A stretch of 64,000 nt of DNA, taken from IMG/VR virus record IMGVR_UViG_2718218136_000001. One strand, written 5' to 3'. The notes under the pieces are model-generated. The model searched no databases and was not told the origin of the DNA. It saw only the letters and a list, made by a program, of their open reading frames with translations. Positions within the stretch are counted from its first letter, which is position 1, and every line of letters begins with the position of its first letter. Source of the stretch: a virus (Duplodnaviria; Heunggongvirae; Uroviricota; Caudoviricetes). Position numbers and translations under genes: made by a program. Shown here piece after piece: positions 11,506 to 12,741 of this stretch.

Positions 11506-12741
11506 TTAATTACTGACAGTTTCAGGTTTCGGGAAACTGAACAGTAAATCACGGTAGTATTCGTATTGTTTCTGGCGCAACTCGATTTCACGCGGAAGAC
11601 CTTCGGTGATGGAGTTAGTCAGGGTGTCGAAATTATCCAGAATCCGAACGATTTCAGACTGGATGGCAAGGGATTTTTCCGGATTATCCGGGCAGGGGAT
11701 TGGGATTTTTTTTTGAGAATAATTACTAATCCATTGGCGTTTATGGTCTCCCTCTGCGAATTCACTTGGTAATGTATTGAGCCAATAGTAAACATATTTC
11801 AGTAAGGTTTTATTATCATCACATGATGTAACCATTTTCATAGCCGATGATTTTGCCTTAAAGTCAAAATCCACCCATTTATTAGCGGTGGTGAAATCAT
11901 CAAAAATTATTACAGGTGCCTTTGATGCCTGATAAATACCATGAGTCTCATTTGTGTATCCAAGAATAAATGTTTTTCCGGCAGTAAGAACCGGGATGGT
12001 ATATGTGTCGTGATAATCTTTTGCTTTTACCAAATACTTTGTTGGCTGTTCATATTTGGTTATTTCCCCCAATGGCAACCACTCAACCTCAACCCCATCC
12101 AGCAATTTTTCCAGATAAATAGGTTTTTCCTGCTCCTCATCAAAACTCAACAACTGGTCGCGATAGTAGTTGTACTGTTTTTTACGCATGTTAAGCTCAG
12201 CGGTAAGCTCAGCGGTAAGCTCAGCGGTAAGTGCAGTAAACTTATTCAGAATCCGAACGATTTCAGACTGGATGGCAAGGGATTTTTCCGGATTATCCGG
12301 GCAGGGGATTGGGATTTTTTTTTGAGAATAATTACTAATCCATTGGCGTTTATGGTCTCCCTCTGCGAATTCACTTGGTAATGTATTGAGCCAATAGTAA
12401 ACATATTTCAGTAAGGTTTTATTATCATCACATGATGTAACCATTTTCATAGCCGATGATTTTGCCTTAAAGTCAAAATCCACCCATTTATTAGCGGTGG
12501 TGAAATCATCAAAAATTATTACAGGTGCCTTTGATGCCTGATAAATACCATGAGTCTCATTTGTGTATCCAAGAATAAATGTTTTTCCGGCAGTAAGAAC
12601 CGGGATGGTATATGTGTCGTGATAATCTTTTGCTTTTACCAAATACTTTGTTGGCTGTTCATATTTGGTTATTTCCCCCAATGGCAACCACTCAACCTCA
12701 ACCCCATCCAGCAATTTTTCCAGATAACTTAACTCGCTCAT
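11506..12741 (-). CDS. hsdS: Type I R-M specificity subunit with duplicated identical TRDs and a TAEL x3 central repeat
   Basis: 411 aa; two identical ~160-aa blocks; [13 protein letters not shown] between them; ATGA overlap with hsdM stop. Confidence 0.85.
11638..12118. repeat. 481-bp direct repeat copy 1 (encodes TRD2 of hsdS)
   Basis: Identical to 12247-12727 at period 609 bp, read directly. Confidence 0.9.
12193..12240. repeat. Tandem 12-bp repeat aagctcagcggt x3 plus a degenerate fourth unit (encodes TAEL x3 on the minus strand)
   Basis: Read directly; corresponds to the spacer-length-determining repeat of type IC HsdS. Confidence 0.9.
12247..12727. repeat. 481-bp direct repeat copy 2 (encodes TRD1 of hsdS)
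   Basis: Identical to 11638-12118. Confidence 0.9.

Follow-up and report, generated by a model that had tools for sequence, protein, structure and literature searches.

A predicted GAA/GAA specificity subunit of a type IC restriction system, carrying two identical target recognition domains, on a P1-like phage-plasmid

The stretch of DNA analysed here (64,000 nucleotides of the IMG/VR virus record IMGVR_UViG_2718218136_000001, referred to as the window) carries a type I restriction operon in the order hsdM-hsdS-hsdR, all on the minus strand, in which hsdS encodes a specificity (S) subunit containing the same target recognition domain (TRD) twice. The stop of hsdM overlaps the start of hsdS by 4 bp, and 121 bp separate hsdS from hsdR. 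The hsdS open reading frame (ORF) is intact, encodes 411 amino acids plus the stop and matches Pfam Methylase_S; an identical gene in the record CP016549 carries the annotation WP_059338147.1. The three genes and the parts of hsdS, where CR1 and CR2 denote the two conserved regions, are given below.

12738..14300, minus strand: hsdM, N6-adenine methyltransferase subunit (Pfam N6_Mtase, 6.5e-121, and HsdM_N)
11506..12741, minus strand: hsdS, composed of the N-terminus, a GAA-type TRD, CR1 with three TAEL repeats, a linker, a second GAA-type TRD and CR2
12247..12727, minus strand: unit copy 1 (slot 1; gene nucleotides 15-495), comprising helix, predicted GAA-reading TRD and flank; exact 481-bp repeat
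12193..12228, minus strand: (TAEL)x3, three perfect tandem copies of the 12-bp unit ACCGCTGAGCTT (gene nucleotides 514-549)
12119..12246, minus strand: CR1 (dimerisation helix D1) and the linker DEEQEKPI, the 128-bp unique part of the 609-bp unit
11638..12118, minus strand: unit copy 2 (slot 2; gene nucleotides 624-1104), with the same sequence as copy 1
11509..11637, minus strand: CR2 (dimerisation helix D2), aligning with the C-terminus of 7bst_A
8268..11384, minus strand: hsdR, translocase/endonuclease of 1038 amino acids (Pfam HSDR_N, SWI2_SNF2, T1R_D3-like and EcoR124_C)

The segments 11638-12118 and 12247-12727 match at 481 of 481 positions with 0 mismatches, exactly as an earlier note on this DNA had reported, and these coordinates are also the maximal extent of the exact match. 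The length of the repeat rules out a chance origin. The two copies are offset by 609 bp, and each spans the short N-terminal helix YLEKLLDG, an entire TRD and a 3' flank. They encode HsdS residues ~6-165 and 209-368, and these two protein segments are identical, in agreement with the claim that both TRDs are the same sequence. The three perfect 12-bp TAEL repeats described in that note were likewise found in CR1. In the sequence, 19 residues lie between IL(D/N)xF and KQY both in CR2 and in the three-TAEL CR1.

HsdM could be aligned over its full length with the M protein of EcoR124II (7bst_D, residues 1-520, 1159 bits), and HsdR with that of EcoR124I (2w00_A, residues 1-1038, 2290 bits). Judging from this similarity of HsdM and HsdR, and from the EcoR124_C domain in HsdR, the operon belongs to type IC (the EcoR124 family), the class to which it had been assigned before. 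The layout of HsdS, TRD1-CR1-TRD2-CR2 with tandem TAEL repeats in CR1, is likewise the type IC organisation. HsdS aligned end to end with EcoR124II HsdS (7bst_A), where residues 1-199 and the C-terminus match, CR1 and CR2 included, and the C-terminal TRD alone differs, its place being taken by a second copy of the N-terminal TRD. An alignment with TRDs of known specificity, which the earlier note had proposed as a check, identified the duplicated domain as the N-terminal TRD of EcoR124I/II, with residues 5-165 identical in amino acid sequence. EcoR124I uses its N-terminal TRD to read GAA and its C-terminal TRD to read RTCG (PMC3320862). By its sequence, the S subunit of the window is GAA/GAA in a type IC system of the EcoR124 family, and the operon is very probably a functional one of EcoR124 type, placed on a P1-like phage-plasmid and having a GAA-reading TRD in both slots.

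EcoR124I and EcoR124II (GAAN6RTCG and GAAN7RTCG) share with the window the gene order, the N-terminal TRD, CR1 and CR2, and EcoR124II has the same number of TAEL repeats, three; one relative of the window (L004) encodes EcoR124I HsdS itself. The differences lie in the second half of the protein and in the replicon. The C-terminal TRD of EcoR124I/II reads RTCG, whereas the window has a second GAA TRD there, joined by DEEQEKPI and YLEKLLDG instead of the KEG of EcoR124I. EcoR124 originates from the conjugative plasmid R124, in contrast to the P1-like phage-plasmid that carries the operon of the window.

The S subunit of type I enzymes is rotationally symmetric: its antiparallel CR1/CR2 coiled coil inverts the TRDs, so that two identical ones meet the same half-site once on each strand (PMC3874165). 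This coiled coil would hold the two identical TRDs of the window system antiparallel in its M2S1 and R2M2S1 complexes, with the two reading GAA on opposite strands, and the target would be an interrupted palindrome. The symmetric site that the earlier note anticipated, here a prediction, has literature precedents. The mutant EcoR124I HsdS(delta50) and the engineered S(NT) dimerise to enzymes that recognise GAAN7TTC and both methylate and cleave (PMC2877798, PMC3320862, PMC3874165), and EcoDXXI deltaC recognises TCAN8TGA. That the TAEL repeat count sets the spacer length of type IC targets, as the note had stated, is established in the literature (PMC3874165), and for the GAA TRD in particular the count sets the gap in EcoRD2 and EcoRD3 (GAA N6 RTTC and GAA N7 RTTC, respectively; PMC3874165). 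The delta50/NT constructs have two TAEL repeats and retain the parental 7-nt interval between methylated adenines, whereas EcoDXXI deltaC, with three, retains an 8-nt interval (PMC3874165); the three-TAEL enzymes with an 8-nt methyl-interval are EcoR124II, EcoDXXI, EcoDXXI deltaC, EcoRD3 and EcoDR3 (PMC3874165). Since three TAEL repeats imply an interval of 8 nt between the methylated adenines, we predict GA(m6A)N8TTC (m6A, N6-methyladenine) as the target of the window allele, with GAAN7TTC as the main alternative. By the same reasoning, the two-TAEL sister alleles L012 and L013, described below, should read GAAN7TTC. We infer enzymatic activity, the exact target with its spacer and the dimerisation of half-size forms from these comparisons, activity and target being predictions.

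It is possible, though we would not expect it, that the same architecture instead reads GAAN7TTC or has some other spacer. The sole experimentally characterised GAA/GAA enzyme, EcoR124I delta50/NT, reads GAAN7TTC; however, with two TAEL repeats it has one fewer than the window allele, and three repeats go with an 8-nt methyl-interval in every tabulated type IC case. The linker of the slot-2 GAA TRD is 13 residues longer than the KEG of EcoR124I, and either this linker or the register of CR1 and CR2 might offset the third TAEL repeat and shift the geometry and the spacer, although the three-TAEL CR1 and CR2 are equal in length. In a staphylococcal half-S subunit (Bower et al.), the spacing departed from a simple helix-length rule (PMC6158711). 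Because of the longer linker and this exception, the predicted spacer is uncertain.

Besides the linker and the staphylococcal exception, the structure model, the site counts and the literature set limits to our reading of an active GAAN8TTC enzyme. An AlphaFold2 model of HsdS, built on a 39-sequence alignment, had 7bst_A as its best fold match (TM 0.60/0.64), confirming the overall HsdS fold, and contained long helices of similar length at residues 151-199 and 354-400, but its confidence was moderate (mean pLDDT 65.8, pTM 0.50), too weak for the TRD-TRD geometry or the spacer. GAAN8TTC occurs 19 times in the 64-kb window against 22.1 expected, which is at chance level and uninformative on the spacer, and GAAN7TTC occurs there 25 times against 22.3 expected, being neither avoided nor enriched. 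In the open-access literature a natural GAAN7TTC or GAAN8TTC methylation motif was not found, the hits for such motifs and for the protein accessions being to the engineered enzyme and to reviews only.

Like the predicted window enzyme, EcoR124I delta50/NT has two GAA TRDs per enzyme and a palindromic target, which in the case of the window is a prediction only. It consists, however, of two truncated chains (residues 1-215, TRD1 and CR1) paired CR1:CR1 with two TAEL repeats, whereas in the window both TRDs belong to a single natural polypeptide, whose coiled coil is CR1(three TAEL):CR2. The natural 208-residue half-size relatives of the window protein described below differ from delta50/NT as well, for they combine TRD1 with CR2 and not with CR1. 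EcoDXXI deltaC (a Tn5 truncation, TCAN8TGA) and NgoAV (a natural truncated form, GCAN8TGC) are type IC enzymes with the same 3 bp-N8-3 bp pattern and 8-nt interval; they are homodimers of truncated S subunits bearing other TRDs, while the window S subunit is full length with a covalently duplicated TRD. The earlier description of a symmetric site as unusual for type I enzymes holds for the classical enzymes, but not in general, as a description of 2013 calls NgoAV the one natural type I system whose specificity is palindromic (PMC3874165), and in Helicobacter pylori JHP1422 has three TRDs, two of them identical, and reads AAGN5CTT, while JHP0785 has a single TRD and reads RTAYN5RTAY (PMC3936762). 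It is the accepted view that identical TRDs lead to palindromic sites (PMC3936762). Palindromic specificity from identical or single TRDs is an already known principle, and no new principle is claimed here; what seems to be undescribed in the searchable literature is a natural single-chain GAA/GAA allele of the EcoR124 family together with its series of unit and TAEL numbers.

A 1451-bp segment of the window is identical in at least nine complete plasmid records from different hosts and countries (CP016549, CP073950, ON934557, LR883966 and five RHB13 farm isolates). A 97.2%-identical lineage (L002) has the same architecture in three further complete records, one of them from Escherichia marmotae, and its two copies differ at 4 of the 481 sites. 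In a third lineage (L014, protein P0003), the substitutions E15K and K38T are present in both copies. Within the TRD units, the window and L002 differ at 8 sites, every one of them synonymous, which is consistent with purifying selection on both copies.

An EcoR124-type hsdS match was obtained in 1340 of 5426 complete E. coli genomes (975 chromosomal and 689 plasmid places), and among these genomes the GAA TRD is paired with many different partner TRDs. The GAA TRD occupied slot 1 in 96 proteins and slot 2, with another TRD in slot 1, in 15; it is one of 4 TRD clusters, out of 27, that were seen in both slots. A protein search brought out two kinds of junction between CR1 and TRD2, a short classical one, SFKEGEVEW, and a long one starting SFDEEQEKP(I/V), the latter in 25 of 117 proteins of a sample biased towards GAA. 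In the long-junction class, slot-2 TRDs carry the same 5' and 3' flanks as slot-1 TRDs, around many different TRDs, and the CR1 and linker of the window type were found again in many asymmetric alleles. Shared flanks, the same TRD in either slot, and both duplication and single-TRD deletion alleles are thus all present in this family, which is the pattern of domain movement (DoMo) described earlier in H. pylori, where TRDs are duplicated or lost via flanking repeats and a short central repeat is variable (PMC3077401), and also in the Moraxella literature. The H. pylori S subunits resemble the window family in having the same flanking repeats at both slots, TRDs able to occupy either slot and three-TRD variants; they differ in organism and type I family and lie at chromosomal loci, whereas the window series is found on nearly isogenic E. 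coli phage-plasmids.

The sequences of the individual copies bear on how the symmetric allele arose. Copy 2 of L002 is DNA-identical to the slot-2 TRD of an asymmetric allele (L018, protein P0019), and copy 1 of L002 equals EcoR124I TRD1 apart from 1 substitution. In the window, unit site 124 is a C in both copies, a private state that no other sampled allele has, in keeping with the recent duplication or gene conversion suggested in the earlier note. These patterns point to two steps: a crossover in CR1 between GAA-X and Y-GAA alleles would give GAA-GAA, and gene conversion between the copies would then keep or make them identical. As private or lineage-specific changes are shared by both copies, the copies appear to have been made alike within each lineage, through gene conversion or through a fresh intragenic duplication, and this would explain the 100% identity in the window. 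We also considered the linker DEEQEKPI as a copy of the 3' end of hsdM left by an old tandem duplication, but the alignment gave scattered matches only and no support.

Two further S subunits come from Logan assemblies. P0016 (546 aa), a distant relative, has three different TRDs, with a GAA-like one (YEQPTQYLV...) in the middle and a coiled-coil segment after each TRD, and recalls the three-TRD JHP1422 of H. pylori. In P0006 (387 aa), a diverged homologue, both TRDs are GAA-like and ~81% mutually identical (92/114 residues); its junction is of the short KEG type and its repeats are TTEL. This protein may represent an older symmetric S subunit in which divergence of the two halves has begun.

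Near-isogenic relatives, with 1-7 other base differences from the window over 3.8-7.2 kb, carry other numbers of units or of TAEL repeats, as follows.

One unit: L005 (pYLPI7b), 208 aa (N-terminus, TRD and CR2); exactly one 609-bp unit fewer than the window, and 1 mismatch in 3842 bp
Three units: L006 (CP099227), 614 aa; one unit more than the window, and 1 mismatch in 4937 bp
Two TAEL repeats: L013 and L012, 407 aa; one 12-bp repeat fewer than the window, and 2 and 7 mismatches in 7224 bp, respectively

The deletion to a half-size S subunit foreseen in the earlier note thus has a natural counterpart in L005, and a three-unit allele exists beside it. As a RecA-type recombination substrate, the 481-bp identity would allow one 609-bp unit to be deleted or added, deletion giving a 208-aa half-size S subunit that is expected to act as a homodimer, its palindromic specificity being unchanged or almost so; the 12-bp TAEL repeats may slip between two and three copies. 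In L006 (CP099227.1, locus 1607-3451) there are three exact 481-bp copies and two CR1 blocks with three TAEL repeats each, and the plasmid measures 95,826 bp compared with 95,217 bp in five siblings from the same pig farm, with unchanged hsdM coordinates. This three-unit hsdS, known from one assembly, is either a real product of unequal crossover or an assembly error.

Half-size hsdS genes lie between intact hsdM and hsdR in five complete E. coli genome records, and the 208-aa proteins occur on 74, 60 and 31 contigs, counts that short-read collapse may inflate. An exact look-up in a collection of 15 billion proteins returned half-size forms, while the 411-aa and 614-aa proteins were absent from it. 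L008 is a half-size derivative within the L002 lineage, having its HsdR and HsdM accessions in common with L002, and its haplotype shows the copy-1 state at the 5' end and the copy-2 states at the 3' end. We do not take this chimera as proof of a real deletion, as an assembly collapse gives the same pattern, and regard it as supportive only. In NZ_CP010146.1 (11383-12225), the half-size locus is 843 bp long against 842 bp, at 99.9% identity, and its 1-bp indel may cause a frameshift. On a plasmid of frog-farm E. coli (L011, NZ_JCAPUC010000003.1, locus 1607-3619) the hsdS allele is split by IS1B, a natural knock-out.

For the direction of change, the sequences favour two units to one: CR1, the TAEL repeats and the linker are common to the two-unit gene and asymmetric alleles but are missing from the half-size gene. 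The reverse, an ancestral 208-aa half-size hsdS whose tandem duplication produced the two-unit gene, is improbable. The half-size proteins are indeed found on more contigs than the two-unit forms, and both sit on nearly identical backbones; but draft-assembly counts are biased by repeat collapse and contig breaks, with many members labelled 'partial', and duplication of a half-size gene cannot create CR1, the TAEL repeats or the DEEQEKPI linker. Moreover, L002 copies 1 and 2 match, respectively, the slot-1 (EcoR124I) and slot-2 (L018) haplotypes of asymmetric alleles, and the copy states at the two ends of L008 are as expected for a deletion crossover.

We consider it very improbable that the two-unit S subunit works poorly or not at all, as a by-product of recombination in an inactive or decaying system. 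The allele readily loses one unit and in one relative is disrupted by IS1, but hsdM, hsdS and hsdR are all intact and full length, and the architecture is maintained in no fewer than three sequence lineages (the window, L002 and L014 types). The TRD units of L002 differ from those of the window by synonymous changes only, whereas L014 has the replacements E15K and K38T in both copies; engineered GAA/GAA enzymes methylate and cleave. An expansion during assembly, which the earlier note had raised, is hardly credible, for although tandem repeats of ~0.6 kb are error-prone in short-read or hybrid assemblies and the sole three-unit record, CP099227, exactly 609 bp off its five same-farm siblings, could be such an error, 12 complete plasmid records, independent in project, host and country, have the two-unit structure, the reading frame runs on through correct CR1 and CR2 junctions, and the copies in L002 differ at 4 sites, which a duplication artefact would not bring about.

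EcoR124I serves as the workhorse for the biochemistry and structural study of type I restriction, and the window allele is a natural single-chain version of its engineered symmetric derivative. With its half-size, three-unit and two-TAEL siblings on almost identical plasmids, it forms a natural experimental series, suited to testing how coiled-coil length and covalent linkage relate to spacer length, whether S subunits of half and full size are equivalent in function, and how fast repeats remodel specificity genes on phage-plasmids. For annotators, it yields a definite prediction of specificity: GAAN8TTC where there are three TAEL repeats, GAAN7TTC where there are two. A bolder and, in our estimation, unlikely reading is that the nested repeats (two or three 12-bp TAEL repeats within one to three 609-bp units) act as a high-frequency, recombination-driven switch of architecture and specificity on P1-like phage-plasmids, the two-unit allele being selected for and not transient. 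If so, loss or gain of a unit would be neutral for specificity, as the half-size dimer, the two-unit and the three-unit forms would all read GAA/TTC, while TAEL slippage would toggle N7 and N8; the two-unit allele would then be a living example of the ancestral duplication and fusion of a half-S that is hypothesised to lie behind two-TRD S subunits.

Two ORFs run antisense to the operon, one of 182 aa opposite hsdR (10947-11495, plus strand) and one of 146 aa opposite hsdS (11941-12381, plus strand). Both are probably spurious, the latter being partly duplicated by the repeat; a Pfam scan, run on the 182-aa ORF only, gave no match. Other features around the operon are as follows.

11449..11478, minus strand: promoter-like site in the hsdS-hsdR spacer (TTAACA, 18 nt, TATTTT; from a consensus scan)
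8050..8074, minus strand: terminator-like hairpin with a T-run downstream of hsdR (10-pair stem with 6 GC pairs; a consensus match only)
14477..15078, plus strand: phd-doc toxin-antitoxin pair of the P1-like backbone, divergent from hsdM (from the annotation of the identical stretch in CP016549)

The first of these is a weak candidate for a separate hsdR promoter, as in EcoR124I; promoter-like consensus matches are no commoner here than in shuffled sequence, and the promoter and terminator scan gave nothing above background. By similarity, which was tested over 7500-32000, the window is a phage-plasmid of the P1 family (Punavirus-like), and its relatives are typed IncY. CP016549 (plasmid unnamed3 of E. 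coli O177:H21) is identical to the window over 13,451 bp. The hsd operon adjoins phd-doc, pdcB (DUF968) and the pac terminase genes. The phage record closest to the window, vB_EcoM-673R5, also has a type I system at the hsd position, and P1 matches the flanks only, so that this position on the P1-like backbone looks like a variable defence locus.

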